From positions 256,001 to 320,000 of the forward strand of contig CAWBZI010000005.1 in the NCBI GenBank assembly GCA_963793265.1: DNA of 64,000 nucleotides, read 5' to 3'. This document shows, in pieces, positions 44,285 through 64,000 of the stretch. The notes under the pieces are model-generated. The model had not been told where the DNA came from and ran no database searches. It saw only the letters and a list, made by a program, of their open reading frames with translations. Positions within the stretch are counted from its first letter, which is position 1, and every line of letters starts with the position of its first letter. A program made the position numbers and the translations under genes. This stretch comes from an uncultured cyanobacterium. Its GTDB lineage: Bacteria > Cyanobacteriota > Cyanobacteriia > Phormidesmidales > Phormidesmidaceae.

Positions 44285-44288
44285 AGCT

Positions 44289-44570
44289 ATGCTTAAAGAT
44301 ATTACTGATGTAAAGCTGCTCGATGGGTTTTGCCTACATATCACCTTTGAAGATGATGTAGAAGGGTCTGTCGATATTCAAGAGCTAGTAGACTTTACAG
44401 GGATTTTTTCACCGCTTGCAGACCCAGAGTATTTTGCTCAAGTCACGGTTAGCCCTGATCTAGGAACTATCTGCTGGCCCAATCACGCCGACCTCGACCC
44501 AGATGTGTTGTATTCCATAGTCACTAATTGCCCACTGCCGACCTATCCCAAAGCGACGACATCTTCATAG
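44289..44570 (+). CDS. DUF2442 antitoxin-like protein
   Basis: L.ITFEDD..G.VD, GIFSPL.D..YF..V, TICWPN.ADLDPDVLY. Confidence 0.85.
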   Translation: MLKDITDVKLLDGFCLHITFEDDVEGSVDIQELVDFTGIFSPLADPEYFAQVTVSPDLGTICWPNHADLDPDVLYSIVTNCPLPTYPKATTSS

Positions 44571-44665
44571 GAGATCTTCCGATAAAAGGTCTTCGCCATC
44601 GCGCCAACAATATTCCATACAAGCTAGGCTGCTATACTGGCGAAGAATTAGGCAGGACAAGTGTT

Positions 44666-47622: not shown

Positions 47623-47700
47623 ACCCAGCCCTCCTTCTATTTTTGTATTAAAGAAATAAAAATTACTAATTTGCATGAGCGAATACTGCCCAATATAATA

Positions 47701-47715
47701 TGATAATGATTATCA
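47701..47715. promoter_or_regulatory. Zur box in a divergent promoter
   Basis: Perfect 7-1-7 TGATAATGATTATCA. Confidence 0.9.
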
Positions 47716-47741
47716 TTTTCAAATAGTTTCAGAATTTGCCT

Positions 47742-47889
47742 ATGTTAACCGTTGTAGCAGGCGCTTTAGGAGCGGGGAAAACCCACTGGATTCATGAGCA
47801 AATGACCGCGCAAGACGGTTTGGAGCAAGTGCGTGCAGAGTCACTGCTGTACATCAACCCGCTCACGGTTGGGGTCGATGCTTATCGGT
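47742..47889 (+). pseudogene. N-terminal remnant of a CobW/COG0523-like GTPase
   Basis: MLTVVAGALGAGKTHW Walker A; homology ends after about 49 aa. Confidence 0.7.
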
Positions 47890-48723
47890 TTGGCCGCTCT
47901 CGAAGCTGTCCTTACCGATATTGACCAGCAAGGCGCTGACAAAACCTTTTGCCTGGGCGATTTGGTCGGCTATGGCCCTTATCCCAATGAAGTTGTCGAG
48001 GTGATTCGCGATCGCCAAATTCCTTCCTGTCAGGGCTGCTGGGATGAAGACATTATCGACGGCCTCAACGCCTGCGAATGCAGCTACCCCTCACTACTCG
48101 CTGAAAAACGCGGTCATCTCGCCCACCAGTGGACAGACGCCGAAGTCACTGCCGAAACCCGCGAGTACCTGGCCCAAATGCCCCTAGCTTTGCGCCATGA
48201 GAATCTTTGTTTTGTCCATGGCAGTCCCCAAAGCCAGCACGAGTATCTTCTACCCGAAACCAGCGCCTTCATGGCCCTAGAAAGAGTACTCTCAACCGGT
48301 GCCGACGTGCTCTTTTGCGGTCACACCCATGTGCCCTATGTCCGCACGCTCAGCGACGGGCAGCTCCAAATTCGCGTGATTAAAGATGATAAGCCTGCTG
48401 GCAAAAGCACTTCAAAGCCTACTGCAAACCGTCTTGCTAGCAGTGAGATAACAACGCCCAGCCAAACGCTCACCACGCCGCTAAAACGCATTATCAATGC
48501 CGGTTCGGTCGGTGAGCCGAGACACGGCGAACCCCAGGCCACCTATGTCATTTACAACACGCTTACTCAGCAGACAATTTTTCGTGAAGTCGATTATGAC
48601 TACGCCAAAACCTGCGCGGCCATTCTAGAAAAAGGACTGCCGCCCATTTTTGCTTGGCGACTGTCTCAAGGTCTTGAGTTTGCCGAAAAAGCAGACGATC
48701 CGACCCATGTGTGCGAGCGTTGA
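47890..48723 (+). pseudogene. Metallophosphoesterase-family gene lacking its first motif
   Basis: LAALEAVL..ID, CLGDLVGYG, HGSP, CGHTH, NAGSVG; the upstream xIHGN motif is absent. Confidence 0.7.
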
Positions 48724-48783
48724 AGTTGGCATTGAAATTGGCGTTGAGGTTTATTGATCTTTATTCTTGCAGCAGCAGCGATT

Positions 48784-49536
48784 ATGGTTTGGGCAATTTT
48801 GAGCGGTATTGAGGGCAATTTGACGGCTTACAAAGCTGTACTCAAAGATATTCAAAAGCAGTCCGTCAAGGTAGATGAACTCTATATCTTGGGCGATTTG
48901 ATTGGCCCTCGACCAGAGTCAGAAGCCTTAGTGAAGTACGTTCAGCAATCGCAATCGCTCACGCCTCAAATTTGCTTAGGCTGGTGGGAAGAACAACTTT
49001 TTAACCTGTATGGCTCAGGCACCGATCCAGATGGCGTGCAGCTCAGACAAAGGTACGGAGCCGACGCAATTGAGCACCTATGGAAAGCCGTTTCTCGCGA
49101 CAGTGTAAAGTGGTTGCGCGGACTAGACTTTGGCTTTTTCGAGCTAGACTGCCTGCTCATCCACGGCAGCACTCTTGGCTGTGATGACGAACTCACCCCC
49201 AAAACCAATCCACTCACGCTGTTGGATCGCCTACTGCGCTCAGACGCTAATTCTCTTTTCTGCGGACGCTCTGGCTTAGCTTTTCAGTATCAGTTACCCT
49301 CCGCTCAGATCACCTCTACTGTTGAAACCTTAGGATCAGATCAGAGCCCTAGCCTGCCTCAACAGAGTAAGCTGAACCCTCGACAAATTATCGGCGTGGG
49401 CAATGTCGGTCGGTTGGCAGGCTATGCCAGCTACGCGCTGTACAATCCTGGGACAAACATTGTTCAATTTCAGCACGTAAACTACGCCAAAATGCTCAAC
49501 ACTGTTTCCAGCTCTCGTGGAAAAGGTTTTGCGTAG
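48784..49536 (+). CDS. Degenerate metallophosphoesterase-family protein
   Basis: SGIEGN, LGDLIG, LGWWEE, IHGS and FCGRSG replace the canonical metal ligands. Confidence 0.8.
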   Translation: MVWAILSGIEGNLTAYKAVLKDIQKQSVKVDELYILGDLIGPRPESEALVKYVQQSQSLTPQICLGWWEEQLFNLYGSGTDPDGVQLRQRYGADAIEHLWKAVSRDSVKWLRGLDFGFFELDCLLIHGSTLGCDDELTPKTNPLTLLDRLLRSDANSLFCGRSGLAFQYQLPSAQITSTVETLGSDQSPSLPQQSKLNPRQIIGVGNVGRLAGYASYALYNPGTNIVQFQHVNYAKMLNTVSSSRGKGFA

Positions 49537-49602
49537 CTTTCAAAGCGTTGCGTAAGACTCTCTCCAAAGGCGATAACCGTTACTCAACAAGTTACTCTTC
49601 TG

Positions 49603-49634
49603 CGCAAACGTCCTAAGAGGTTAGGGCGTTTGCG
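49603..49634. terminator. Bidirectional terminator hairpin
   Basis: cgcaaacgtcctaa-gagg-ttagggcgtttgcg. Confidence 0.7.
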
Positions 49635-49645
49635 ACATTCAGGTG

Positions 49646-49918
49646 TTAGAAAGTTGCTTTTGAGGTTTGGCGTGCGCGCAAAGCCAGCAGCGCGATCGCA
49701 CCTAGTCCGGCTAAAGCACCCGGCTCAGGTACTTTAGTGGCAATCATTCTTTGTCCGAGTGACTCGCCTGCACCAGGATCTTCCAAAAGCTGTGCCCTTG
49801 TACGGGTAAAGAAAGCCACATCTAGGTGAGGGCCAAAGCCCACAGGCAAATTAGGAAACTCATTGCCAAAATCAGTGAGATGAACGTGAGGGATAGTTGA
49901 GCGATCGCCTAGAACGAT
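49646..49918 (-). pseudogene. C-terminal remnant of a PEP-CTERM protein
   Basis: KVPEPGALAGLGAIALLALRAR sorting signal; the frame is closed upstream by TAA, with no ATG start or signal peptide. Confidence 0.75.
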
Positions 49919-50021
49919 TTACAGACTCATTCAGGCGATCGCCGTTTCTCCCGACGGTCAATATTGGAATAAGGCAAAAGCGCTCAGCCAAATGTTAGAG
50001 GGGCCATAACAAAACGGAAGG

Positions 50022-51113
50022 CTACTGAGTAGGCAACAAAGCCTGAGCTGCCGCCTGATCGCAGGTGCCGCCTAGCCCATTCACAATGGTGCAGGTGTTG
50101 GCCACGAGCATACCCTGATAGCTCGCAGCAGGCGTTCCCGCTTCGCCTAATCCATCGGCATAAATCGGCTCTTCTGAAACCGCAATATCTGTTTCTCTAG
50201 AGACGGTTTCAATCAGGCCCGGATTGCTCGTTGACTCCACAAAAATGCTCGCCACATTCTTATCGGCAACAACATCGGCTAGCCCTTTAATATCTGCGGC
50301 TGAAGGCTGAGCTTCGGTACTAAAGCTATCGAGCGCAGGTTCAATTTCAATACCATAGGCGTTGGCATAGTAGCCCAGCGCACCGTGAGTACTAATTAGC
50401 GTCCGTCCTGTAGCGGGCAACGTATCTACTTGGGTTTGAATCCAGGTGTCAAGCTGTTCTAGCTGAGAAATCAGCGCTGCGGCATTAGTCTCATACAGAG
50501 CCGCATTCTCTGGAAAGGTTTCGCTCAGTTGGTTTGTAATTTCTTGCACCATAGCAACACCATTTTCAGCATCATGCCAAACGTGAGGATCGGCCTCCAT
50601 TTCACCTTCAGCGTGTTCTTCATGATCCTCACCTTCAGCATGGTCGTCATGATCTTCGCCTTCAGCATGGTCGTCATGATCTTCTCCACCGTGATCGTGG
50701 TGCTCGCCCAGTAGTGGGGCTGACACGGCTACTTCGGAAACAGCTACCGTGGGTGCAGAGAGGTCAGTCGCTTCCACCATTTTGATAATTTCGGGCTCAA
50801 ACTCATAGCCGTTGTATAAAACCAAGTCGGCTGCTTCGATAGCTCGTCTGTCTGTAGGAGTAGCGCTGTACACGTGGGGATCTTGCCCCGCATCAATCAG
50901 ACAGGTCACGTCTACAGTGGTCTGAGCAATTTGCTCTGTTAAATCGCAAAGCACGCTGTAGCTGGCAACCACTTGAGGCGTTCCTTCAACAGAGGTTTCA
51001 GACTGTGGCTGACTGCTGGTGTTTTGAGCGCTCTCGGGCTGCGTACAGCTAAGCGCCGTAAACGCCAGGGAAAGTACGGTTAACCTTGAGAAGAGACGAA
51101 GGGATATCTGCAT
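50022..51113 (-). CDS. znuA: Zn ABC transporter substrate-binding lipoprotein with a His-rich loop
   Basis: Lipobox ALSC; DPHVY, DPHVWHD, THGAL; (GEDHDDHAE)n loop; Zur box upstream. Confidence 0.92.
   Translation of the reverse strand: MQISLRLFSRLTVLSLAFTALSCTQPESAQNTSSQPQSETSVEGTPQVVASYSVLCDLTEQIAQTTVDVTCLIDAGQDPHVYSATPTDRRAIEAADLVLYNGYEFEPEIIKMVEATDLSAPTVAVSEVAVSAPLLGEHHDHGGEDHDDHAEGEDHDDHAEGEDHEEHAEGEMEADPHVWHDAENGVAMVQEITNQLSETFPENAALYETNAAALISQLEQLDTWIQTQVDTLPATGRTLISTHGALGYYANAYGIEIEPALDSFSTEAQPSAADIKGLADVVADKNVASIFVESTSNPGLIETVSRETDIAVSEEPIYADGLGEAGTPAASYQGMLVANTCTIVNGLGGTCDQAAAQALLPTQ
50598..50705 (-). repeat. 27-bp coding tandem repeat encoding the His/Asp/Glu loop
   Basis: ccttcagcatggtcgtcatgatcttc-type units, about three copies. 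Confidence 0.8.
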
Positions 51114-51149
51114 GGGGGCACAGCTACTCGCGTAGTCTTGACATTGATT

Positions 51150-51164
51150 TGATAATGATTATCA
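51150..51164. promoter_or_regulatory. Zur box upstream of znuA
   Basis: TGATAATGATTATCA. Confidence 0.9.
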
Positions 51165-51291
51165 TTCTTGAATATATATCAAGAAGCGCCTTTTGCAACC
51201 CGCTTCTTAACAAAATAATGCCGCGACCAAAACAAGGCCGTGTCCGTGGCCCGCTAGAATTGGGCTGTAAACCCTGCACCTGTTTAAACTT

Positions 51292-51657
51292 GTGATCCAA
51301 ACTAAGTCCAGCGACGTTTGCCAGGTTCGGTGCTTTAATGAGGCGCTGGTGGCCCAGGTGGGTGATGCACTGCCCGAAGAGAGTTTGTTGGAAAATGCTC
51401 AAATTCTGTTTAATGCGCTGGCAGATAGGTCACGATTAAAAATTCTCCATGCGCTGAGCGGGGGGCAAGAGCTTTGTGTCTGTGATGTCGCGGCTTTGCT
51501 GAATGTGAAAGTGGCTGCGGCCTCTCACCATTTGCGCAAGCTACGCGATCTTAAAATCTTGAAGCATAGAAATGAGGGCAAGCTGGCTTATTACTCTCTA
51601 AAAGATTTGCGTACTGCCGATATTCTTGGCTACGCGCTGAAGCAGTTAGCCCGATAG
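51292..51657 (+). CDS. ArsR/SmtB (CadC/ZiaR-like) metal-sensing repressor
   Basis: DVCQVRC N-terminus, ELCVCD, SHHLRKL. Confidence 0.9.
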   Translation: MIQTKSSDVCQVRCFNEALVAQVGDALPEESLLENAQILFNALADRSRLKILHALSGGQELCVCDVAALLNVKVAAASHHLRKLRDLKILKHRNEGKLAYYSLKDLRTADILGYALKQLAR

Positions 51658-51671
51658 ACCACTCTATCAAA

Positions 51672-51737
51672 AACATTCTAACGATGGTGAGAACGTATAG
51701 CTGTTTATGATAATATTCAAACGTTCATTAGAATGTT
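51672..51737. promoter_or_regulatory. Two SmtB/CadC-type 12-2-12 inverted repeats
   Basis: AATATTCAAACG-TT-CATTAGAATGTT (51712) and AACATTCTAACG-AT-GGTGAGAACGTA (51672). Confidence 0.7.
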
Positions 51738-51753
51738 TGAGCGAGGGTGGGCG

Positions 51754-52371
51754 ATGAGTGAGGGTTGCTGTCAGCGCAAGGGTGACGATCTTGCAAAGCT
51801 GCAAAAGCATCAGGCTAAAGTGCTTTGGGCTGTTTTGCTGATTAATGGCGTGATGTTTGTGGTTGAATTTGGTGCGGGTATTCGGGCGGCGTCGCTCTCT
51901 TTGACGGGAGACTCGTTAGATATGCTGGGCGATGCGCTAGTATATGCCAGCAGTTTGTACGTGGTGAATAAGGGGCGTAAAGCGCAGGCAGGATCGGCCT
52001 TTTTTAAGGGGGTGATTATGTTTTTGTTTGCGATCGCAGTTTTCGCAAGAGCCCTCTACCAGCTCTCTGTCGAAGTCACTCCGGCTGCCACACTGATGAG
52101 CACGATAGGCGTGGTCGCCTTACTCGCTAACCTCACTTGCCTGCTGCTACTCTCCAGGCACCGCAAAGATAATTTGAATATGTCTTCGGTGTGGCTGTGC
52201 TCTAGAAACGACATCATCGCTAATACGTCCGTGCTGGTGGCGGCAGGGTTAGTATTCCTTACGCAGTCAGTGCTTCCTGACTTAGCAGTTGGATTTTTGC
52301 TGACGGTCGTTTTTGCCAAGTCAGCCGGGAAAGTGCTGACTCAATCGTGGCGTGAGATACACACAGCCTAG
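51754..52371 (+). CDS. Cation diffusion facilitator (CzcD-like, without C-terminal domain)
   Basis: GDSLDMLGD, WLCSRND; MSEGCC N-terminus. Confidence 0.88.
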   Translation: MSEGCCQRKGDDLAKLQKHQAKVLWAVLLINGVMFVVEFGAGIRAASLSLTGDSLDMLGDALVYASSLYVVNKGRKAQAGSAFFKGVIMFLFAIAVFARALYQLSVEVTPAATLMSTIGVVALLANLTCLLLLSRHRKDNLNMSSVWLCSRNDIIANTSVLVAAGLVFLTQSVLPDLAVGFLLTVVFAKSAGKVLTQSWREIHTA

Positions 52372-52473
52372 AGAGCAGATAATCGCCACAAGACGCTGAT
52401 AGAAAGTAATCCCTCTGTAAGTGCTATTGATGAGCGCCGTATCTTGTGACCTAGCTGGCGTTGTACTATAGAG

Positions 52474-52488
52474 TGATAATCATTATCA
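52474..52488. promoter_or_regulatory. Zur box upstream of znuB
   Basis: TGATAATCATTATCA. Confidence 0.9.
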
Positions 52489-52504
52489 GTCGTGTAGTAC
52501 GCCT

Positions 52505-53347
52505 ATGGATTGGCTGTTAGAGCCGTTTAACTATGAGTTCATGCGTCAGGCATTGATGGCAGGTGTGCTCGTCGGCATTTTGTGTCCGGTTATTGGCACC
52601 TACCTGATTGTGCAGCGGATGGCGCTGCTGGGCGATGTAGTGGCTCATGCGGTGTTGCCGGGATTAGCAATCGCGAACTTCCTCAACTTCCCTTTACTCG
52701 CCGGAGCCTTCATCTCCGGCATGTTCAGCACCTTTGTTACCTCTTGGATTCGCGCGCAATCGAAGGTCAAGGTCGATACGGCCATGGCAATTACCTTCTC
52801 TAGTTTTTTCTCGTTAGGCATTACCCTGCTCACGGGCTTGCGCAGCCGTTTGGATCTTGAAGAACTACTCTTTGGCAACATTTTGAGCATTACGCCTGCC
52901 GATGTAAGAGAAATTGGGCTGATAGCGATCGCTGTTTTAATCGCTGTCAAAGTGTTTTACAAAGAGCTGTTGTTCTTCACTTTCGACCGGCTAGGCGCAG
53001 AAGCCGTTGGCCTACCTGTCACTGCAATTAATATTGGACTGATGGCTGCAATTACGCTAACCATTGTGGCCAGTATCAAAACGGTAGGTGTCATTTTGGT
53101 AATAGCGCTGATGGTGAGCCCAGCAGCAGCGGCTTATTTGCTGACCAAAGAGCTGCATTGGATGATGGTCGTCGGCTCGGGGCTAGGTGTGCTCTCTTGC
53201 ATGATTGGGATGTACATTAGCTACTACTTCAATACGCCTTCGGGGCCTGCGATCGCCCTCACCCTATTCACTTGCTTTTTACTAGCGTTGTTGTTTAGTC
53301 CTAGTCAAGGAATCCTGACGCGCAGTCGAAAGCATTCTAAAGCCTGA
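52505..53347 (+). CDS. znuB: Zn ABC transporter permease
   Basis: GDVVAHAVLPG ABC-3 motif; Zur box upstream. Confidence 0.9.
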   Translation: MDWLLEPFNYEFMRQALMAGVLVGILCPVIGTYLIVQRMALLGDVVAHAVLPGLAIANFLNFPLLAGAFISGMFSTFVTSWIRAQSKVKVDTAMAITFSSFFSLGITLLTGLRSRLDLEELLFGNILSITPADVREIGLIAIAVLIAVKVFYKELLFFTFDRLGAEAVGLPVTAINIGLMAAITLTIVASIKTVGVILVIALMVSPAAAAYLLTKELHWMMVVGSGLGVLSCMIGMYISYYFNTPSGPAIALTLFTCFLLALLFSPSQGILTRSRKHSKA

Positions 53348-53410
53348 TGGTAAGTCTTGATTGCAGGGACTTTTCGCATTCGATATAGAATCCGATGAAC
53401 AATAGGCTCG

Positions 53411-53788
53411 TCAAGCTGCGTTAGCTTTACGGAGTTCGACAAAACCACCTTCAAAAATCTGCATCGTCAGTTCATAGTCTTCCATCAAAGACATTCCGAC
53501 CAGTGGCTCTGAGTCAGCTTCATCTACTGGAATAGTGATGAGCGCCTCATCCCAAGCAATGACTGCTTCATAAACATTGAAAACGCATTCACTGCCATCT
53601 CCAAGAATTGCCCTGCCTCGTCCTTTCCATTTCAAATCTAGTTCAGCAATCAAATCAGGCGGTAATGAAAGCCACCCATTAAATCCAGTATCGACGATTG
53701 CATCTTGTATGAAAACTTTACTATCAGAGTGATGGATTGAGAGCGAAATGATCGGTTCAAGTTCTGTGTTGACTGTTCCGGTAATCAT
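53411..53788 (-). CDS. Clan AA (retropepsin-like) aspartic protease
   Basis: IVDTGFNG and LVGM motifs. Confidence 0.85.
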   Translation of the reverse strand: MITGTVNTELEPIISLSIHHSDSKVFIQDAIVDTGFNGWLSLPPDLIAELDLKWKGRGRAILGDGSECVFNVYEAVIAWDEALITIPVDEADSEPLVGMSLMEDYELTMQIFEGGFVELRKANAA

Positions 53789-54058
53789 TTAAGTTTTCCG
53801 GGTTCGTCCACCAAATCGGCGGACGTAGCCAGATCCGATGCGAACGATCCAGACTTGAGCATCGGGTTGACGAGCTTCGAGACGATCGCAAGCAGCAATT
53901 TCGTTCTTGTCAACTTCAAAATCTCCAGTTTCTATGTCGATAGCCACAATCTTTCCTTGGTTGCCTCTCTCGACCTGCTGGCGTATCTGAGACTCATAGA
54001 TTTCATCACCACGTCGAGCAAACTCTTTTCTGCTATAGCGGGGTTGACGAACTGCCAT
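53789..54058 (-). CDS. Small partner protein of the retropepsin (putative TA-like pair)
   Basis: G..IYE..IR...GKIVAIDIETG; abuts the protease gene. Confidence 0.75.
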   Translation of the reverse strand: MAVRQPRYSRKEFARRGDEIYESQIRQQVERGNQGKIVAIDIETGDFEVDKNEIAACDRLEARQPDAQVWIVRIGSGYVRRFGGRTRKT

Positions 54059-54206
54059 CTACTTAACCTTTCTATGACTATACTCCACCATTTTAACCTG
54101 TAGAATCAGCATCACTCTGGCATTAATTATCTGAGGATATAGCTTGACTTATGTCTCCTAGTCTCCAATCTCCGAGGTACGAGATTGAACCATATATTCC
54201 AAGATT

Positions 54207-54272
54207 GCCTGCTTTCTATCAGCGTTATGATTTAGTCCTAGTCAAGGGATTCTGACGCGCAGTCGAGGGTAG
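54207..54272 (+). repeat. Degenerate duplicate of the znuB 3' end
   Basis: 54231-54266 matches 53294-53329 at 34 of 36 positions. Confidence 0.85.
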
Positions 54273-54396
54273 CTCCACTCAAGACTGGTGCAAGATCTGA
54301 GCTATAAACTACGGAAAAGTTAGTCATCCCAGTGTTACCTTTTGAAAGGTTGGCAAATTGACAAGCATGGTCAAATATACTCTCAGGGGAGGCAGG

Positions 54397-54726
54397 ATGA
54401 TGGTTGATCGGGACAATCTGTACGTGGAACAGCGAGATGGAGCTTATTGGATGTCGAATTCTCGGGTTTCTCTCGACTCTGTGGTACTGGCATTTTTGCA
54501 AGGCTTATCGCCAGAGATGATCGCGGCTGAGTGCTTTCCATCGTTGAGTTTAGAACAGATCTATGGCGCGATCGCCTACTATCTTGGCCATCGCACTGAA
54601 ATTGATGACTACTTGCAGCAAGCAGATGCGGAATTTGCCGCCCTTCGAGAGGCCACTCACAACCAAGATCAGCCGTTTTACGAAAAGCTAAGGCAGGCTA
54701 GACGCTTACCTATAGGCCAGCGATGA
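54397..54726 (+). CDS. DUF433 antitoxin-like protein
   Basis: SRVSLDSVV..F.QG.SPE.I...FPSL.LEQIYGAIAYY. Confidence 0.85.
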   Translation: MMVDRDNLYVEQRDGAYWMSNSRVSLDSVVLAFLQGLSPEMIAAECFPSLSLEQIYGAIAYYLGHRTEIDDYLQQADAEFAALREATHNQDQPFYEKLRQARRLPIGQR

Positions 54727-55070
54727 TTCGATTTCAGGCAGATGCAGACTTGAATCAGATTATTGTGAAAGCTTGCCGCCGCGCTGAGCCTGACATAGAT
54801 TTCCAAATTGCTGCGGAGGCCGGGTTGATTGGAATAAGCGATCCAGAGGTTTTAGAAGTTTCAGCAAAGTTAGGTCGAGTACTCGTAACTCATGACCGCA
54901 AAACAATGCCGAAACATTTTGCAGATCGCATTATTAACGTACCTAGTGCTGGGGTGATTGTGGTTCCGCAGTCTATGGCAATTCGAGCTGTTGTAGAGGA
55001 TTTAGTGCTCATTTGGATGGCGAGTGAAGCAGAAGAATGGATTAATCGGATTCGAGCGCTGCCTTTGTAG
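54723..55070 (+). CDS. DUF5615 PIN-like toxin
   Basis: RFQADADL, DPEVL, RVLVTHD; 4-bp overlap with DUF433. Confidence 0.85.
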   Translation: MIRFQADADLNQIIVKACRRAEPDIDFQIAAEAGLIGISDPEVLEVSAKLGRVLVTHDRKTMPKHFADRIINVPSAGVIVVPQSMAIRAVVEDLVLIWMASEAEEWINRIRALPL

Positions 55071-55206
55071 AGCAAGTAGAAGAACCTATAACAACTACTC
55101 AACAAAGAAGCTCTCTCAGTTGTTGAGAGAGCTACTGATAAAAGGATTGCCTGAAGACCGAACTCAAGGCCCCTGAGATTTTTTAGCTGGAACTTTTCAG
55201 CTAATG

Positions 55207-55449
55207 CTAGAAAGCAGGCCGCTGTACTCCACCTGTACAAACCGCGCAACTACAGGTCAAGGCATCTTCGATGGGATTAGATTCGTTTTGAACCAGGGTA
55301 GGTAGGGCATCATCAGAGGCGATCGCTGAATTTGTAGTGACTGGCGCTGCGATCACCGGACTACTCACTACCAATACTGCCGCCAAAGAACCCGCACAGC
55401 CCAAAGCCGTTAATAGCGTTTTTTGACTGGTCATCTGCTGATTGCTCAT
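55207..55449 (-). CDS. Small secreted protein with a C-terminal CSCAVC motif (likely start 55449)
   Basis: Signal peptide ending VIA-A; NPIEDALTCSCAVC. Confidence 0.65.
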   Translation of the reverse strand: MSNQQMTSQKTLLTALGCAGSLAAVLVVSSPVIAAPVTTNSAIASDDALPTLVQNESNPIEDALTCSCAVCTGGVQRPAF

Positions 55450-55559
55450 AAGGCGTACCAAGATAGGTGTGCTTTTAAGCATAGCCAACCCCTCTATTCC
55501 TGACAATAGTCAGCGATACAGTTCCTCAAATTTAGCCACGGTGATCCAACCCGCTGAAT

Positions 55560-56303
55560 TCAGCAAACAAAAGGCATCGGCATACCGCCATTGAGCACCG
55601 ACTGAATATTGGTACCATAAGCCTGCTGAATATTGTCCATAGTCATCACCGCTCGGGGGGTGTCATTAGCCAACACGCGGCGGTTGAGTAGCAGCAAGCG
55701 ATGATAGCGATTGAGCGCCTCGCCCCATTCATGACTGCAAACCAGCAGCGTTTTACCTTGCTCGCTCAGGTCTGCGAAGATGCTCATCATAATCGCCTCG
55801 GTCTTTTTATCAATGCCGTTAAAAGGCTCATCTAGCAAAAATAGGCTGGGCTGCTGCGCGAGGGCGCGGGCCAGAAAAATTCGCTGCTGCTGCCCGCCCG
55901 AAAGCTGACCAATTTGCCGGTGGCGCAAAGGTAGCATTTCCACCCGATCTAGCGCCGCACTAACCTGTCTTTTTGCCCTGGCATCAGGAGAGCGGCCCCA
56001 GCCCAACGCTGCGGTCTGGGCCATCATTACTACATTCCAGGCGGTGACCGGATAGTCCCAGTCAATTTGCGATCGCTGCGGCACATAGGCCACCTGCCGC
56101 CGCTGCCGCTTCAGCGTCGTTCCATTCAGCAAAATCTGTCCTCTGTAGGGTACCAGACTTAAGATCGCCTTGACCAAAGTGCTTTTTCCGGCTCCATTAG
56201 GGCCGATAAGTCCTACCCATTCACCAGGGTTCAGAGTCAACGAAACCCCAGTGAGTGCCTCAATGCCTCGATAGTTAACAGATAGGTCTTGAACCGCTAG
56301 CAT
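55560..56303 (-). CDS. znuC: Zn ABC transporter ATP-binding protein
   Basis: GPNGAGKS, LSGGQ, LLDEPF; Zur box upstream. Confidence 0.9.
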   Translation of the reverse strand: MLAVQDLSVNYRGIEALTGVSLTLNPGEWVGLIGPNGAGKSTLVKAILSLVPYRGQILLNGTTLKRQRRQVAYVPQRSQIDWDYPVTAWNVVMMAQTAALGWGRSPDARAKRQVSAALDRVEMLPLRHRQIGQLSGGQQQRIFLARALAQQPSLFLLDEPFNGIDKKTEAIMMSIFADLSEQGKTLLVCSHEWGEALNRYHRLLLLNRRVLANDTPRAVMTMDNIQQAYGTNIQSVLNGGMPMPFVC

Positions 56304-56312
56304 CTTTAAAAA

Positions 56313-56327
56313 TGATAATCATTATCG
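56313..56327. promoter_or_regulatory. Zur box for znuC
   Basis: TGATAATCATTATCG. Confidence 0.85.
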
Positions 56328-56402
56328 AAACTTACGAAGAAGCATAGCAGATTTCTTTAACGCTGCTGACCATCGTAAGCAATCGGTACTGTGATATAAA
56401 AA

Positions 56403-56417
56403 TGATAATCATTATCA
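56403..56417. promoter_or_regulatory. Zur box for the COG0523 gene
   Basis: TGATAATCATTATCA. Confidence 0.9.
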
Positions 56418-56434
56418 CAGTTTGACCTTTGCCT

Positions 56435-57448
56435 ATGTTAGCCCCAAAAAATAAGCAGGAGCCTGAGCAGGCGCTTGCCATTCCTAAGCAAGGAATGCCG
56501 GTCACGGTGATTACTGGCTTTTTGGGCAGTGGTAAAACCAGCCTGCTCAATCATATTTTGAATAATGCTCAGGGGCTGAAGGTGGCGGTGCTGGTGAATG
56601 AGTTTGGCGATATCAATATCGACGCTCAGCTTTTGGTATCGACCAATCAGAACATGGTGGAGCTGAGCAACGGCTGCATTTGCTGCACGATTAACGAAAG
56701 CCTGGTAGACGCGGTTTATCAGGTGCTAGAGCGAGAAGAGAAAATGGATTATTTGGTGATAGAAACCACCGGACTAGCCGATCCGCTGCCGATTATGACG
56801 ACGTTTGTAGGCACAGAACTAAAGAATGTGACCCGGTTAGATTCTGTTGTAGGCGTGATCGATGCTGAAACGTTTGGCCCCGAGTTGTTGAAGCATTCGG
56901 TATATAGAAATCAGCTTATTTACAGCGATGTGATCTTGTTGAACAAAACTGATTTGGTTAGTGACGATAGATTAGCTGCCGTTGAGCGAGATATTCATCT
57001 ATCGAAATCTGGGGCGCGAATATTGAGCTGTAGCTTGCAAAGCTCGTCTGATTTGCCGCTATCGGCCATTTTAGACGTGGGACTAGCCGATGTGGAAACC
57101 CATACGCTTTCAGAAAGAGAGCTGTCCGATCATCTGGTGAGCGATCGCTTTGTTTCAATTCCTTTTCGCAGCGATCGCCCCTTTGATCTCACCAAGTTTG
57201 AGCATTTTCTCATGCAGCAGCTTCCTGACAATATCTTCAGGGCCAAAGGCATTCTCTGGTTTGAAGGGCAGCCACAGCGATATATTTTCCAGCTAGCAGG
57301 CAAACGATGTAGCCTATCGCTTGATCCTCAGTCGCACCCCCGTGAAAACCAGCTAGTGTTTATAGGTCATCAGCTTAATCCATTACAGCTTCATCAACAG
57401 CTCAACAATTGTTTGACCGGCCAACCCGCTTCTTTGCTAAGCATGTAA
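56435..57448 (+). CDS. COG0523/CobW-family Zn metallochaperone GTPase
   Basis: GFLGSGKT, NEFG, GCICC, ETTG, NKTD, FRAKG. Confidence 0.93.
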   Translation: MLAPKNKQEPEQALAIPKQGMPVTVITGFLGSGKTSLLNHILNNAQGLKVAVLVNEFGDINIDAQLLVSTNQNMVELSNGCICCTINESLVDAVYQVLEREEKMDYLVIETTGLADPLPIMTTFVGTELKNVTRLDSVVGVIDAETFGPELLKHSVYRNQLIYSDVILLNKTDLVSDDRLAAVERDIHLSKSGARILSCSLQSSSDLPLSAILDVGLADVETHTLSERELSDHLVSDRFVSIPFRSDRPFDLTKFEHFLMQQLPDNIFRAKGILWFEGQPQRYIFQLAGKRCSLSLDPQSHPRENQLVFIGHQLNPLQLHQQLNNCLTGQPASLLSM

Positions 57449-57520
57449 CTTTTAAGAGTGTAACAACTTGTTTAGTCTTGCGCCCCGTAAGACAGGTGAA
57501 CGCAATCCTGCTGTATAAAC

Positions 57521-57535
57521 TAATAACGATTATCA
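57521..57535. promoter_or_regulatory. Zur-like box (two mismatches) upstream of the unknown gene pair
   Basis: TAATAACGATTATCA, adjacent to a -10-like TGnTATAAA/TAAACT. Confidence 0.7.
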
Positions 57536-57714
57536 TTCTCGTTTTAGGTCGTAGAGGTCATAGATGTCACCTACGTTTTCTATTCAGCACTGGCCTTGGG
57601 TTAAATCTCCATGTATCGCTTACAGGCGATTTAGAAAGTGCTTGAACAAGTTTGATGTCGTAACAGTTTGATCTCAACCGATTACCAGCATCTACATATT
57701 AGGACAGTGTTTAT

Positions 57715-58539
57715 ATGGCCACTGCCATTGATTCTACTCACGCTCATCTTTCTCCAACAGAGTCAACGCTAGCGCTTTCAGCTAGCACTATCTTGAACGG
57801 CATTGATGCGGTTCCGCTCGATTGCCTACCGCCTGTTTGGCAGCAAATAGCAGCCCGAGAGGTCACGATTGGACATGGCAATCCTGATTTTTTGATTGCC
57901 CTAGCTCGATTGTTTTTTACCAAAGGGACTGACGGGAGTTCCGAAATATTTGGCTCAGAAATATTTCAACAGGAATCTCAGCACACCTCTGGCTTTCAAG
58001 CTTTTTATGCCAAAGGCGTATTTGAGACTTTGGCGTTCTTTGGCCATGACTTTTTGACTACGGCCTATCCTAGTTTTGAGCGATCGCGCCAAACCGCCAA
58101 AGCCCAAGACGGCGCTGAGCGAGTGATCGCATTCGCCCAGTCAGTCTTCGATGACTTTGGCTACGAGCTACCCGCGAGCTTCTACTGGATGCTGCTATGC
58201 CCCATTGAGCGCGACTCCATTTACGAGGCGCGTCCGATGTTTTTTGATCCCCAAATGCAGGGCGTAAAGCGAGCATACGACGCCTGCTTACATGGGTTTA
58301 ACGTAACGGCGATGCTAATGCGGGTGCAGGCTCATGCTTCTCGGCAGGAATTGTTGCTTCAGCATGGCTGCGGCTGCGATCATTCTCTGGCGCAGATGAT
58401 TCCGGGCCAAGCAAGCATCTCTTTTGAGTTTGAAAGTGCCCAGGGAAGGCAGAAGGCGATAACCGCCTATCTCTGGCGCTGTTGGAATGAATATTTGCTC
58501 TTTCCTTTGGGGGTTCATGCTCACACGTTGGCGCTGTAG
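57715..58539 (+). CDS. Hypothetical protein with an HGCGCDH motif
   Basis: 274-aa ORF with an AGGA RBS; no family recognised. Confidence 0.75.
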   Translation: MATAIDSTHAHLSPTESTLALSASTILNGIDAVPLDCLPPVWQQIAAREVTIGHGNPDFLIALARLFFTKGTDGSSEIFGSEIFQQESQHTSGFQAFYAKGVFETLAFFGHDFLTTAYPSFERSRQTAKAQDGAERVIAFAQSVFDDFGYELPASFYWMLLCPIERDSIYEARPMFFDPQMQGVKRAYDACLHGFNVTAMLMRVQAHASRQELLLQHGCGCDHSLAQMIPGQASISFEFESAQGRQKAITAYLWRCWNEYLLFPLGVHAHTLAL

Positions 58540-58647
58540 GTCGCTTTGCTAGAGCGCAACACTATTGAATGATCACACATCCCCTGGCGCTGCTGGGGGT
58601 TTGTTGTTTGGGGCGATGTCCGTAGAAACAGTGATGGAAGATAAGCG

Positions 58648-60177
58648 ATGGTTTTTCAGGTGAATATTGCGATCGCAGGTGCGGGCGTCAGCGGCTTTGC
58701 AACCCTGGGCTACTTAGTAGAGAATTTGCGCACACTGCCCTCGGCTGAAGTGGTTATCTATTGGCTACAGCCGCCTAGAGAGATTCAGCTAGAGAATTTG
58801 AGTGTGGCGCAGCGCGATCGCCTTACCCACCTTAAAAATATCGGTATTGATCCTAGCCAACTGTTTGGCGGCGGGCAGGTCTACCATCCGGCTCAGCCCT
58901 CGCTGTTCACCTTTAATGGCAACAGCACCGCCCGTGGATTTAACTTTGCCGCTCAACGGCACGATACCAACGACTACTTTGAGTGGGTACAGGTCAATCG
59001 CCGCCTGCTCGCTACGCTATATCCAGACTTTGCCCCCGAAAAAGGCCAGCAGCGCCACCGCGATCATACCCTGGACGATATTCAGGGCACAACGCCTCGC
59101 GGAGCCTACGGACTATATCTTCACGCCCAATTTTTAGCGCTTAAGGCTCGTTTGCCTGAGCACATCACACTGCAAATTATTCCTGAAGCGCTGCAAGGGT
59201 TTGCTCAAGCGGCTCGACAGATCACCGTTAATACAAGTACTCGCAAGCTGACCGTTGATTATCTGGTTGAAGCGACAGGGCATCGCTTTGCCAAACTGCG
59301 ACCTGAATGGGCTGGGCGCGTGTTCAAGGCTTATCCGTGCGATCGCTACGGTCAAAATTTGCCGCCACAGATCGCGGTAGTCGGCGCTGGCCCGGCAGGA
59401 ATCGAAGTGGCGCTTCATGCCCTACACAATCTAAATGTAGAACACGTCACGCTAATCAGCCGCTCAGCTCAGTCTCGACTACCTCAAGTAGAGCCGACAG
59501 AATCCTACGAGTGCCAGTGGTTTACTCCTGAGAAAATGCGGCTTCAACCTACCGCAGCCAATGCCAAGAGACTCCTGAACAAAGAGCTAGAAACCTGCTA
59601 TCGAGCCTGCAATTTACCCTATCCGGGTTGGGACGCGCTGTTGCAAATTGAGGATTATCCCACTTTTTTAGCAGATTACCTAGAAACAACAAAACAATCT
59701 CAAAATCACCCCTTTGCTCATCTGATTCGTCCGGTCATGTCTTTTTACGAGCAGGTAAAAGAGTTGTTGTCTGCCGCCGAGCAGATTGGCTTATTGCAGC
59801 TCATTAATCAGGTTAAGCCGCTGTTTGCCACGCAATCTCGACCTTGCGCTGAGCTAATGCTAGCGGCGCTTCAATCAAAGCGCTTAACACTGATGGCAGG
59901 AGAGTTCTTACCCGAGCAGGCAATTCCCACTATTTTGCGTCCCAACGGTACTCATATGTATCCCGACTGCGTAATTCTGGCAACAGGATTCGTTCCGTCG
60001 ATACCGCCTTTTTATCCACAAACTATCGCTACCCGCTGCTACAGCGTAACGGGCACTTCATTAAGTTCGGTGCATAGAGAGGCAGAAAGCGTGGCGGGCC
60101 TCATCACACAGGCGATTAAAATGCAGGCAATCAAGCCCCGGCTGCTTCGTGCTAGCTCTGTAACTCTGCCTAATTAA
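58648..60177 (+). CDS. FAD/NAD(P)-binding protein (YdhS/COG4529-like)
   Basis: GAGVSG, GGGQVY, PRGAYGLYL, EATGH, GAGPAG, LATGF. Confidence 0.8.
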   Translation: MVFQVNIAIAGAGVSGFATLGYLVENLRTLPSAEVVIYWLQPPREIQLENLSVAQRDRLTHLKNIGIDPSQLFGGGQVYHPAQPSLFTFNGNSTARGFNFAAQRHDTNDYFEWVQVNRRLLATLYPDFAPEKGQQRHRDHTLDDIQGTTPRGAYGLYLHAQFLALKARLPEHITLQIIPEALQGFAQAARQITVNTSTRKLTVDYLVEATGHRFAKLRPEWAGRVFKAYPCDRYGQNLPPQIAVVGAGPAGIEVALHALHNLNVEHVTLISRSAQSRLPQVEPTESYECQWFTPEKMRLQPTAANAKRLLNKELETCYRACNLPYPGWDALLQIEDYPTFLADYLETTKQSQNHPFAHLIRPVMSFYEQVKELLSAAEQIGLLQLINQVKPLFATQSRPCAELMLAALQSKRLTLMAGEFLPEQAIPTILRPNGTHMYPDCVILATGFVPSIPPFYPQTIATRCYSVTGTSLSSVHREAESVAGLITQAIKMQAIKPRLLRASSVTLPN

Positions 60178-60298
60178 TAGTCTACAGTCCGCCTCAGAAA
60201 CGGTTGCTTAGAGCAAATACTACATGTAGCGTTCATCAGCCTGATGACACTATCGTCACGCTCGCTGAGTTTGTCAGCCAAGGCGATAGAATAGACGA

Positions 60299-60631
60299 AT
60301 GACTATGCTGATGGTAGAAATACGTCGTAAGTTTGCTGATGAGCAGTTCGAGTTTTCTAAACATGCTGTTGATCAGTCTATCGTGCGCCAAATTCGAGTT
60401 CAAGAAGTTAAAGAGGTCATTGCGAACGGTCAAGTCATTGAGGACTACCCAGAAGACAAGTATGGGCCGAGCTGCCTGATTTTCGGTTCGACCCAAGCGC
60501 AACGTCCTATCCATGTTCAGTGTAGCTATCCTTCTCGCTCGCTTGTTAAAGTAATCACGGTGTACGAACCTAACGCTCAGCAATGGAATAATGACTTTAC
60601 GCAAAGGAGACGTAGTGATGATGGCAAGTGA
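60299..60631 (+). CDS. DUF4258 toxin-like protein
   Basis: FSKHA, IEDYPED..GPSCLI, PIHV.C, VITVYEP. Confidence 0.85.
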   Translation: MTMLMVEIRRKFADEQFEFSKHAVDQSIVRQIRVQEVKEVIANGQVIEDYPEDKYGPSCLIFGSTQAQRPIHVQCSYPSRSLVKVITVYEPNAQQWNNDFTQRRRSDDGK

Positions 60632-60854
60632 TTGGCAAGAAACACTGGTTGAGAAACAGGTAACCTATACCTTAAATCTGAATGGAAAGATTGTTCTCAT
60701 CGACAACGTACCTGCCCGTGTAAACGAAGAAACAGGCGAGCAGTTCTTCTCTCCATCAACCGTAGAACGTTTGCAACAGACTATCTTGGGTGAGAAAGAG
60801 CCTGACCACTTTATCCAGGTTCCTGTGTATAACTACGCTAATAGTGCAGTATAA
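60618..60854 (+). CDS. YgiT-type (MqsA N-terminal-like) partner protein lacking cysteines
   Basis: VTYT...GK...I.NVPA.V..ETGE.FF; overlaps the DUF4258 gene. Confidence 0.8.
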   Translation: MMASDWQETLVEKQVTYTLNLNGKIVLIDNVPARVNEETGEQFFSPSTVERLQQTILGEKEPDHFIQVPVYNYANSAV

Positions 60855-61134
60855 AAGTTCAAGTGCGACAGCGTAGCAGGGATTGATAGCTCATACTAGC
60901 CTGTGCTCTCCATGTTCCGCCAAAGCTATGGAACCAAGCACAAGATTAAATTCATCAACACATCTGTCACTCTGCTATCTTACCTGTTAGGAATAGGAGG
61001 TATAAGACATATGCTTTAAGTGAGTGAAACGTACTACAAAGAAGTTTTCAAGTCATAGTTATTAGCAGCAGGTGTGAGACTACGTCTGTCGCAGAGTCTA
61101 GATACAGCACCACAGAAAGATACCTGTTTGAAGC

Positions 61135-62853
61135 TCAAATATCCTTATTGCTAATTTCTTTTGTAAGCGTTCTAATCAGAGTTTCTGTATCGCTTTCTGT
61201 TTTAAACTGCTTCTTTGAAAGATCAATTCCAGATGTCTCTATGATACTCACTATTTTCTCAAACAACTTCAGACAGGACTCCTCGTCTTCCAAGCTAGAT
61301 ATGAATGTATTAGACTTACTGTCTACCTTGTTACTGTTCAATGGCGGGGGAGAGACTGCCGTCATCGATAACATTCTTGCAAGCATGATCATGTGAAAAC
61401 GAAGCTTTTTGTACTTTCTATCAATAGAGCCGTATCGGAATAATCCTTCTAACCTCTGATAGCACAAAGCGCTTGCATAGTATGGAGCATATTTATGATT
61501 CTTCTCAAAAATCTTTCCATGAAATCTCCTTGCAATAGTTCCGTAGTAACCAGAAACTAAATGAGGAGCGTTCAAAAACGCTGAAGCAAAAGCTTTTATC
61601 TGAATTGGGATAGATATTACCTGAGTCTTTTTAACTCCAGGGGTAGCATGGTATTGCTGTGATCTTCTTTCGTAGTATAGTCCGACATCTTCTCGCATTG
61701 AGTCGTAGTAAAGCTCAAGCTTCTTCTGAAACAAAGTTAAAGAAGCTAGCTGTTCTGGTTTGACTTCGGTTTGACTATTGGTAGCCAAAGTAATTTGGTT
61801 CTTTATATCTTCATCTTCAGTTACTATCACTTTAACTGGAACATTAACTCTCTCCATTCCTCCTACAGATCTGGATTGATGAAGAACGTGACTTGTTTGA
61901 CAACCGTTCACAACTTGATAGTCTCTTAATGTAAACCTATTGCCAGCAGGAGTAAGTGAACTAGCAACAAGAGTAACCCCGTTGTTCAGAACGCAAAACA
62001 AGTCGAATTTTTCTTCCTTCAGCGTAGCTTTGATGCGGGCATTAACTTCGTTATCGCCTTGAAAATCTCTTACATTATCGTAGAATATATTATAGATTGA
62101 TTCGTTAGAGTCTTGAATCAGCTTCAAAAATTCATTGAATGGCAGAACCCCTAAGAAAGCCTCTTTGACTCCATCAATATCTGGCAATGTAATTCTGCTT
62201 TGGAAGTTAACGGTACTCGATAGCTTGTTGCGAGTGTCATGATACAGCTTTTGTAGCTCACTAGCACCATACGGCTGAAACGAAGTACTTTCAAATAAGT
62301 TGCTATCTTCTACTTCTTGCTTTCCTGAAGCGATAACGGCTGATAGATTCTGATCATCTGTCCACTTTCCAGTTGTGACGTAGTACAACTTACAATTTGG
62401 GCGACGATTGGTCATATAGGCAGATTTATTGATAACTTGTTCCCATATTCCCTTAAACTTTTCGATCTGTTCGTTTTGCACCAGTTTTGGTTCGTCAGAG
62501 ATGAAGTCTTTCACTCCAAAGACAAAGGAACCTATGTCTGAACCTTCAAACTTAGACGAACTCTTAGACTGTATAAACGCTACGTCGCAGTCCATATAGC
62601 CGCTATCAGAAACTAGATCATCTAGCTCTTGCACATCAGTCACCAGTCTTCCATTGATAATGACTGCAATTCCATCAATAGCGGAATCTCCTCCTTCACC
62701 TGTATTCAAGGCGTCTAGCTCAAAACTGTTTCTTTGTAGTTTGGACGCTACAACATAGTTTGCAAAGTACTCGAATTGTTTAGACTCAGCTAAATTACCA
62801 AGCTCATTTTCCATCACGAAGTTTTCGAGTAAGTTTTGCGTGATCTTATCCAT
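61135..62853 (-). CDS. AIPR family (abortive infection phage resistance) protein
   Basis: IDG..QSK N-terminal domain; NVRDFQG, NNGVT, VVNGCQT, TNSQT, YYERR; AT-rich. Confidence 0.88.
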   Translation of the reverse strand: MDKITQNLLENFVMENELGNLAESKQFEYFANYVVASKLQRNSFELDALNTGEGGDSAIDGIAVIINGRLVTDVQELDDLVSDSGYMDCDVAFIQSKSSSKFEGSDIGSFVFGVKDFISDEPKLVQNEQIEKFKGIWEQVINKSAYMTNRRPNCKLYYVTTGKWTDDQNLSAVIASGKQEVEDSNLFESTSFQPYGASELQKLYHDTRNKLSSTVNFQSRITLPDIDGVKEAFLGVLPFNEFLKLIQDSNESIYNIFYDNVRDFQGDNEVNARIKATLKEEKFDLFCVLNNGVTLVASSLTPAGNRFTLRDYQVVNGCQTSHVLHQSRSVGGMERVNVPVKVIVTEDEDIKNQITLATNSQTEVKPEQLASLTLFQKKLELYYDSMREDVGLYYERRSQQYHATPGVKKTQVISIPIQIKAFASAFLNAPHLVSGYYGTIARRFHGKIFEKNHKYAPYYASALCYQRLEGLFRYGSIDRKYKKLRFHMIMLARMLSMTAVSPPPLNSNKVDSKSNTFISSLEDEESCLKLFEKIVSIIETSGIDLSKKQFKTESDTETLIRTLTKEISNKDI

Positions 62854-63016
62854 AAATAATCAGCTATTGTTTGTAGTAAGCGTACTATTAGACGACTAAG
62901 CTTCGAAACTATTAGGCGTACTTTAGCTCAAACTTTGCACTGCCTGCCTGAACTTGTAATCTATTGATGTGGGGACACTCAGGACTCTGAAGCCAATTAG
63001 GAATCTAGAATCAACT

Positions 63017-63484
63017 TCAAAACCAATCTTGCACAAACAAAGCAAGCTGACCCGTTCTAATTACCGTTGGCAACCAGCTCAACGCCAGCCCCGCCAACGA
63101 AACAATCAGCATTCCTACAAACGAAATCCCAGCGCCCCCTCTGCCGGTATGAATCTTTATCCGCAGCAATAGCGCTGCTGAGATCATCAGCAAAAAGTAG
63201 CTAGAAACTTTTATCCACACCACCAGCACCACCGCAAAAGAGGCGAAGCCTAAGGCCATCAGTGTGTAGCCTACGTCTGACTGAAAGCCGCTGAGGATAA
63301 AGTCGCAGGTTTGCCGCCAGGCGATGGTTAATACGCTGCACTCCACGATGACGTAGGCAACAGCCGCCCCCCAAATCACCAGCGAACTTCCCTGGTCGTG
63401 TAGAAAAAAGCCGAACGCCATATTCGCTAGCATGAACAGCAGCGCAGATAAAAGGGGCAGTTGGCGTAGCGGGTTTTGTTTCAC
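63017..63484 (-). CDS. Hypothetical integral membrane protein
   Basis: Four to five hydrophobic helices. Confidence 0.65.
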   Translation of the reverse strand: MKQNPLRQLPLLSALLFMLANMAFGFFLHDQGSSLVIWGAAVAYVIVECSVLTIAWRQTCDFILSGFQSDVGYTLMALGFASFAVVLVVWIKVSSYFLLMISAALLLRIKIHTGRGGAGISFVGMLIVSLAGLALSWLPTVIRTGQLALFVQDWF

Positions 63485-63517
63485 AAAGGTTAGGGCATCG
63501 GCGCGATTATCAAAGCG

Positions 63518-63922
63518 CTATAGGTTAGTAGAGATGGCTTGCACCGGGCAGCTTGGTAGGCACTGCTCACACATGATGCAGCGCGATCGCGTAAACATCA
63601 GCTTATGAGTTTGCGGGTCGAGCTGCAAAGATTCGGTCGGGCATACCCCCGTACACAAACCGCAGTGAACGCAGCTATCTTTATCAATCACAATCTCCCG
63701 ATTCACCAGCGACACTTCAATATTGTTATCCCGCATCCAGTTAATCGCTTCGTCAAGCTGATCGATATCGCCCGAAAGCTCTACCAGCAGCTTGCCGACC
63801 TGATCAGGGGCCACGTGAGCCCGAAAAATATTCGCCGCCACGTTGAAGTCTTTGGCGAGCCGGTACGTAATCGGCATGTGAATCGTGCGCTTAGGAAAAG
63901 TGAGCGTCAGTCGTTTTTTCAC
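63518..63922 (-). CDS. NIL-domain 2[4Fe-4S] ferredoxin
   Basis: NIL N-terminus; CVHCGLCTGVCP and CIMCEQCLPSCP. Confidence 0.9.
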   Translation of the reverse strand: MKKRLTLTFPKRTIHMPITYRLAKDFNVAANIFRAHVAPDQVGKLLVELSGDIDQLDEAINWMRDNNIEVSLVNREIVIDKDSCVHCGLCTGVCPTESLQLDPQTHKLMFTRSRCIMCEQCLPSCPVQAISTNL

Positions 63923-64000
63923 GCAGGTTCTCTAGAGTTTTCTATAGGGGTTCTCAAAGTCTCTCGCCTATTTTATCGTCTTGGATTCTCAAACTTTGAG

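Follow-up and report, generated by a model that had tools for sequence, protein, structure and literature searches.

The window analysed here, a stretch of 64,000 nucleotides (nt) on contig CAWBZI010000005.1 of an uncultured cyanobacterium of the Phormidesmidaceae, carries two adjacent genes, A and B, that form a real and apparently undescribed unit, very probably under the zinc regulator Zur. The main interest of this unit lies in gene A, which represents an unnamed, metal-linked protein family. A sequence-only reading of the window had reported a Zur-like box, the two genes and an upstream gene for a COG0523 metallochaperone, all of which lie where it placed them (Table 1), with the COG0523 gene ending at 57448, 72 nt before the box. 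Its description of the pair as undescribed, conserved and linked to Zur likewise holds. Among the best 80 of 200 relatives drawn from a species-genome collection, with neighbourhoods covered within 8 kb, gene B lies directly downstream of gene A in 23 loci, 20 of which have a Zur box at the head of the unit. The closest homologues are labelled Phormidesmis or Leptolyngbya, and the window itself belongs to a filamentous cyanobacterium.

The paired loci all fall among the 27 closest relatives (23/27; the close loci without B are L022, L023, L026 and L027). The box stands directly upstream of the pair in 16 of them, before a hemB2-A-B arrangement in three and before COG0523-COG0523-A-B in one; it is lacking in L013, in L024, which is the one alphaproteobacterial contig with the A-B pair, and in L021, whose contig begins inside hemB2. 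The neighbourhood survey bears out less of the proposed linkage to COG0523, a gene for which lies within 8 kb in only 10 of the 23. Across 301 genomes of the class, 45 contain A and 8 contain B; for 121 genomes of the family the figures are 47 and 18. All 18 carriers of B also have A, and the two genes are adjacent in 16 of them. Both genes are truncated in G053 and G281, a joint decay, and a second paralogue of A without B occurs in G141, G379, G316 and G332. Ratios of nonsynonymous to synonymous substitution (dN/dS) against three orthologues, 0.08-0.13 for gene A and 0.12-0.19 for gene B, indicate purifying selection on both. The hairpin in the A-B spacer is the same in L002, L003, L004, L007 and L011, occurs as a variant in L013, L014, L016 and L020 and is absent where the spacer is short; it may reduce read-through into B or protect the transcript of A from decay, and B may consequently be expressed less than A.

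Boxes were scored against TGATAATNATTATCA, which we take to be the 7-1-7 Zur consensus. The 7-1-7 form follows the available text of PMC3323870. The box of the unit, TAATAACGATTATCA, fits this consensus at 13 of 15 positions, and sites with two mismatches number 20 in the whole genome against 15.6 expected; the box alone is thus at chance level, and the operator is called from its context and conservation. Only five sites of the 5.7-Mb genome depart from the consensus at no more than one position, and all of them fall at 47701-56417 of the window. The site at 57521 aligns with its orthologous operators in an alignment of six sequences, among which a T>C and an A>G change occur in the window only. 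The element TATAAACT is likely the -10 region, placed as repression would need, and was missed by a sigma-70 scan. With a box overlapping this putative promoter and an operator kept across species, the unit would belong to the cyanobacterial Zur regulon, and these features make repression of A and B by Zur very probable. The 16-nt element farther upstream is possibly the site of a second regulator; it is unique in the genome at up to two mismatches and precedes the Zur core in 14 of the loci L001-L027 at up to four.

The origin of this promoter can be traced. A leader of about 180 nt had been described before gene A; the distance is indeed 179 nt, but the segment is no plain leader and represents the scar of a deleted hemB2 gene. 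Window positions 57456-57595 are 82% identical to the hemB2 promoter and first ten codons of L001, and positions 57621-57730 are 80% identical to the hemB2-A spacer of the same locus. The operator is thus that of the hemB2 promoter, and the scar, together with the likeness to L001, points to an ancestral Zur-hemB2-A-B unit, which is still complete in L001-L003. The hemB2 product of L001 is an ALAD (porphobilinogen synthase) without the zinc Cys triad, and the sole hemB remaining in the window genome keeps the zinc cysteines. In other relatives a hemB2-type promoter stands directly before gene A, which implies that zinc control of the pair outlasts the loss of hemB2. There is no Rfam match in window 44000-64000, which rules out a known riboswitch in the leader.

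Gene A had been said to fall in no characterised family, and sequence-profile and fold searches agree. It has no match in Pfam, NCBIfam, PHROGs or ESM Atlas, none among the plasmids searched and none among PDB sequences (best E 0.25), and a profile search of 1.84 billion representatives returned 59 proteins. HMA, G3E, Csp and metallothionein gave no profile match, and absence from that list does not exclude a family. The protein shows no nucleotide-binding motif and no membrane span (maximum hydropathy 1.13), and longer, fused forms were not found, although this is a weak test. Its structural model is confident (predicted local distance difference test, pLDDT, 90; predicted template modelling score, pTM, 0.88) and mostly helical. 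The model has no fold match at E 0.001 in PDB or BFVD; a wide fold search gave a best Z of 4.2 over 80 residues and none of 5 or more among 48,161 chains. Such missing matches neither prove a new fold nor exclude a family.

The residues that matter in this family were counted in an alignment of 48 rows spanning about 20-88% identity. The motifs HGCGCDH (residues 217-223) and HAH (268-270) of the sequence-only reading are both present in the window protein, but HAH is ruled out as a family motif, with H268 in 14 and H270 in 5 of the 48 rows; H223, kept in 21, is no family feature either. What is conserved is D-x3-H...H-x-C-x-C: 45 rows retain D189, and the same number retain H193 and H217; C221 is found in 44 and C219 in 36, with Met in place of C219 in four. 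In the model a hairpin at 213-227 holds H217-x-C219-x-C221. Further conserved residues are Y118, P119, P153, Y157 (47/48), R186 (42/48), E259 (37/48, with Gln in nine) and Y260. A His2Cys2 soft-metal site is the natural reading of the putative ligands, and on this pattern of conservation gene A probably encodes a metal-binding protein.

This is consistent with the distribution of the family beyond the pair. In other microbes its members are found repeatedly next to genes for the handling of zinc and copper, which makes A probably a metal-handling protein not described before. The sequence-only reading had regarded homologues unlinked to Zur boxes or to each other as damaging to its proposal, and most A homologues do lack both B and a box (a Zur box occurs in 1 of 53 distant loci). 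The finding stands nonetheless, because distant homologues have copper-regulator boxes or metal-handling neighbours instead. Zur boxes also occur in the L128 group and in a second clade, which lacks B (L154-L193). In this second cyanobacterial clade the order is Zur box, A, DUF6171 and peptide deformylase, and COG0523 (in L157, L160 and L186) or znuAB lies near in some loci. In L154, L157, L160, L161, L172 and L186 the protein following A is a Cys-rich DUF6171 protein of 86 residues, and several loci with the A-DUF6171-deformylase operon combine a Zur box with a convergent gene for a CooC-like ATPase. The deformylase downstream of A is a candidate zinc-starvation paralogue.

A copper setting is seen as well. 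The core of the copper regulator PetR, defined as GAC-N5-GTC in the available text of bioRxiv 10.1101/2020.07.31.226407, occurs in 23 of 69 upstream regions of Nostocales-type A, mostly at -93/-94, compared with 2.4% of random windows and 0/36 focal loci; either PetR pattern is found within 450 nt in 52 of 91 after de-duplication. By this motif the Nostocales homologues would belong to the PetR regulon; the window copy of A has no PetR-type box. P1B-1 copper ATPases with CPC, YN and MxxSS flank A in seven inspected loci, four of which have an Atx1-like gene. Several Nostocales loci (L031, L036, L070 and L076) have a cbiMNQO operon for cobalt transport immediately upstream of A. A protein of about 120 residues without Pfam match (FRGP...A.CVTD.GSLL.RN) adjoins A, mostly convergently, in 26 of 34 loci of one subfamily (for example L101, 5182-5547, and L110, 6613-6990). 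In L231, from a Nostoc genome, an extended motif of PetR type, oriented as for petJ, lies before a gene for a 423-aa membrane protein that begins with a GHCxGMCG motif; this gene is possibly a further PetR target.

Outside cyanobacteria the settings differ again. Alphaproteobacteria with A comprise 4 of 12 genomes of one order and 4 of 401 of the class; in G402 and G403 the gene is divergent from SCO1 and PCuAC, and in G404 no metal gene lies beside it, on a short contig. A CDF gene follows A in G774 and G648. Non-cyanobacterial metagenome contigs show the orders Fur-CooC-like-A (L209), CooC-like-A (L217) and A-DUF318 (L214 and L216, with DUF1980 in L214). A FastTree phylogeny of 91 rows (72 left of 183 unique loci after thinning at 84% identity, together with 19 proteins) sets these metal-linked settings in separate clades; because many of its branches are long, the two or three independent Zur recruitments that it suggests are an approximate count.

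Gene B had been called YdhS-like, which is correct at the level of the PF13454 domain and not beyond it. As an equivalog of YdhS it is ruled out: the PRK09897 model gives E 0.012 and 13.8 bits against a cut-off of 783, and no partner lyase is found among the recurring neighbours. Both Rossmann motifs are conserved (GAGVSG at 11-16, GAGPAG at 246-251). The model (pLDDT 87.6) has its best fold match in FzmM (8cp2/8cp5; Foldseek E 2.8e-14, TMq, the template modelling score normalised to the query, 0.54; Z 19.9, root mean square deviation 4.5 over 431 aligned residues), followed by PvdA (Z 19.7), KtzI (18.7) and SidA (17.1), and by the thiol reductases Bdr and TrxR (both 18.3), which thus fall within 2 Z units of the hydroxylases. 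The Foldseek check proposed for both proteins therefore left A without a match and gave B an FzmM-type class B fold. Motifs and predicted fold together suggest a class B flavin monooxygenase in a single chain. Identity to the structural neighbours is 13-16%, so the substrate of FzmM is not transferable to B. Gene B was not found in five Nostocales genomes. A predicted complex of A and B (score 0.06, mark 0.32) counts neither for nor against their pairing.

Of the three functions offered by the sequence-only reading (a COG0523 client, a metal-storage or redox module, a zincophore unit), the metal/redox module fits best. We tentatively interpret A as a soluble His2Cys2 metal chaperone or buffer common to zinc and copper regulons, and B as a lineage-specific redox partner. 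When zinc is short, Zur would come off its site at 57521 and A would be transcribed from what was once the hemB2 promoter, a step for which conservation argues strongly; B would be transcribed too, probably less strongly, owing to the hairpin. The cytoplasmic, mostly helical A protein would bind a single soft metal ion, either Zn2+ or Cu+; its ligands would be H193, H217 and both cysteines of H-x-C-x-C, and D189 would lie in the second shell, as the conservation of these residues suggests. A would most likely route metal from neighbouring transporters or keep copper off zinc sites. Gene contexts wire the family, by lineage, to Zur, to PetR or to copper and cation transport genes, from which a metal-handling function would follow. 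B would be an NAD(P)H- and O2-dependent flavoenzyme recruited in this clade only. The weakest step, which we consider rather doubtful, is that B alters the redox state either of the A thiols or of a small ligand, a thiol or an amine, handled by A.

Several observations weigh against this interpretation. The window operator is degenerate and hemB2 is lost, so regulation may be relaxed here. Kin are not independent, and motif counts are consequently overstated. Most A homologues have no metal gene nearby, a copper ATPase lies within 3.5 kb of A in only 11 of 183 unique loci, and the orientation of the PetR box did not settle between copper induction and copper repression. A single metal site per 30 kDa would be poor for storage, and the conserved residues outside the putative site (Y118, P119, P153, Y157, R186, E259 and Y260) would equally suit an enzyme pocket. 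B is distant from its structural neighbours, as noted above, and has no invariant Cys.

The enzyme pocket leads to the alternative that we take most seriously, although we judge it unlikely, namely that A is a metalloenzyme of new fold with a His/His/Cys metal and an Arg186-Asp189 dyad. Such an enzyme might make or modify a small intracellular metal ligand that B oxidises, or replace a zinc enzyme under metal stress. It would account for the conserved polar and aromatic residues outside the ligand set (R186, D189, Y157, E259), for the setting of A among the zinc-sparing paralogues hemB2, thrS2 and folE2 (and peptide deformylase in the second clade) and for the resemblance of the B fold to N-hydroxylases. 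However, the Zur-linked copy keeps its cysteines, unlike typical zinc-free paralogues such as hemB2, only metal transport and chaperone genes and no metabolic neighbour recur across the branches, and the weak test for fused forms found none. A bolder form of the chaperone interpretation, which we regard as improbable, would make A the founder of a new-fold, single-site His2Cys2 carrier for copper and zinc in bacteria and possibly archaea, swapped between Zur and PetR, with B as a dedicated flavin monooxygenase of this clade oxidising the C-x-C thiols and so releasing metal in zinc starvation, a switch by which an enzyme would mobilise zinc.

It is quite unlikely that A is a client loaded with zinc by the adjacent COG0523 GTPase, as had been one of the offered functions. 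The COG0523 gene is directly upstream here, recurs near A in the paired and B-less loci given above, and CooC-like ATPases flank A in other clades; but a nearby COG0523 gene is missing in 13 of the 23 loci with the pair and in almost every other branch, the adjacency in the window is partly a product of the hemB2 deletion, and co-transcription of thrS2 with COG0523 did not mean interaction according to the available text of PMC4787780. The production by A and B of a secreted zincophore, an N-hydroxy chelator, appears very unlikely. The unit is Zur-boxed, and among solved folds B comes nearest to FzmM and to PvdA, KtzI and SidA, which are siderophore N-hydroxylases. However, the thiol reductases match B nearly as well, most A homologues lack B, and the genes that recur within 8 kb in the 80 loci include no synthetase (NRPS-independent siderophore or nonribosomal peptide type, NIS/NRPS), ligase, acyltransferase, lyase, exporter or receptor, distant genes not being excluded. 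That A and B are mere passengers behind hemB2, unrelated to metals, would fit the hemB2 origin of the promoter and the many homologues without a Zur box, but is highly improbable given that the pair retains the Zur promoter after the loss of hemB2, that Zur boxes recur in separate clades and that metal genes or metal-regulator boxes flank A in at least five unrelated settings.

Table 1. Features of the A-B unit and its upstream region (positions in the window).
Feature	Position	Strand	Description
COG0523 (CobW-family) metallochaperone GTPase	56429..57448	+	CobW and CobW_C domains; own perfect Zur box at 56403-56417
16-nt element	57459..57474	+	contains the inverted repeat AACAA-C-TTGTT; lies 49-52 nt upstream of the Zur core
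Likely -10 region, TATAAACT	57514..57521	+	abuts the operator; conserved in the six-sequence alignment
Putative Zur operator	57521..57541		7-1-7 box at 57521-57535 (2 mismatches) and overlapping weaker half-site; originally the hemB2 operator
hemB2 deletion scar	57564..57620	+	start codon and first ~10 codons left, ~950 nt gone
Gene A	57715..58539	+	274-aa soluble protein, unnamed family; candidate metal site D189, H193, H217, C219, C221
GC-rich hairpin with T-rich tail	58581..58607	+	between A and B
Gene B	58648..60177	+	509-aa two-Rossmann FAD/NAD(P)H (flavin and nicotinamide dinucleotide) flavoprotein; PF13454, E 5.8e-17; class B monooxygenase fold

The A-B unit forms the end of a zinc island that further comprises a second FAD protein, two phosphoesterase-like genes, znuA, znuB, znuC and the COG0523 gene. 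No terminator-like site was found on the + strand between the COG0523 gene and gene A, and transcription from the former could possibly run on into the unit. The second flavoprotein (46375-47676, - strand) has its own Zur box at 47701-47715 and is divergent from the two metallophosphoesterase-like genes at 47833-49536. The region 51150-52371 has a perfect Zur box with znuA on one side and, on the other, a divergent ArsR/SmtB gene with a CDF exporter, which suggests one operator region common to import and export genes. The edge of the island (44528-46378, + strand) holds a DUF3299 domain fused to a NicO/RcnA-type transporter domain, a fusion that also precedes a gene A remnant in L104. Behind znuC, a 99-aa open reading frame (55207-55506, - strand) with a C-terminal CSCAVC has no Pfam match and one homologue, in L002. 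Farther away, at 16076-17457, two more Fur-family genes lie on opposite strands beside iron-uptake genes (assigned by eye). In L017 (13868-16726), L018 (12562-15420) and L019 (10834-13790) a perfect Zur box is followed by a third type of flavoprotein (Pyr_redox_3) together with a FeoB-like GTPase/Gate protein.

The closest described systems, as far as given in the available texts, are the Zur operon all4725-all4721 of Anabaena sp. PCC 7120 (hemB2, FAD oxidoreductase, thrS2, COG0523, folE2) and the hemB-II/folE-II cluster on pAQ7 of Synechococcus PCC 7002, which share the regulator and the position of the hemB2 promoter. The Anabaena operon likewise has a flavoprotein downstream of hemB2, with COG0523, folE2 and thrS2 nearby. 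That flavoprotein, however, matches the second flavoprotein of the window (46375-47676; 55-56% identity), which is found between hemB2 and thrS2 in L112 and L113, where no A-like gene lies between these two. Gene B is thereby ruled out as the all4724 orthologue, its comparison with the second flavoprotein giving E 0.28. B shares two Rossmann motifs, PF13454 and its best fold match with the aspartate N-hydroxylases FzmM/CreE and the YdhS-type flavoproteins; it differs in its low identity, in falling below the YdhS cut-off and in the lack of a CreD/FzmL lyase among the recurring neighbours. A resembles Atx1/CopZ, metallothionein, Csp3 and COG0523 in being soluble, in its predicted Cys/His ligands and in its association with P1B ATPases and ZnuABC, but it has no sequence or fold match to them, is 260-270 residues long and has one H...H-x-C-x-C site.

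In the available texts of reviews and papers (PMC6103462, PMC10957091, PMC4787780, PMC4628125, PMC3323870, PMC12292863), which describe uptake systems, COG0523, paralogues, ZepA and one FAD oxidoreductase, nothing resembles A or the A-B pair. A wider literature search found no description either, and the supplements of Anabaena zur and copper transcriptome studies may carry a homologue as a hypothetical gene. The available text on the PetR regulon of Synechocystis (petE, petJ, slr0601-0602) likewise does not describe A as a member, and its Slr0601 and Slr0602 are small membrane or coiled-coil proteins; the Nostocales A genes resemble this regulon in carrying GACA-N3-TGTC and a TTTGAC-N9-TTTGAC repeat, on the opposite strand.

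Gene B is one of three distinct flavoproteins in cyanobacterial Zur units, which indicates a recurring and as yet unexplained need for flavin in zinc starvation. With A added, the PetR regulon would be larger than the four genes that have been reported for Synechocystis. Few carriers are known that take part in buffering zinc and copper in the cytoplasm and in handing them over to proteins. The A family offers a soluble, well-modelled protein with an evident target site for mutagenesis, and it is present in cyanobacteria that can be grown in culture, under two metal sensors, so that its part in this process is directly testable.

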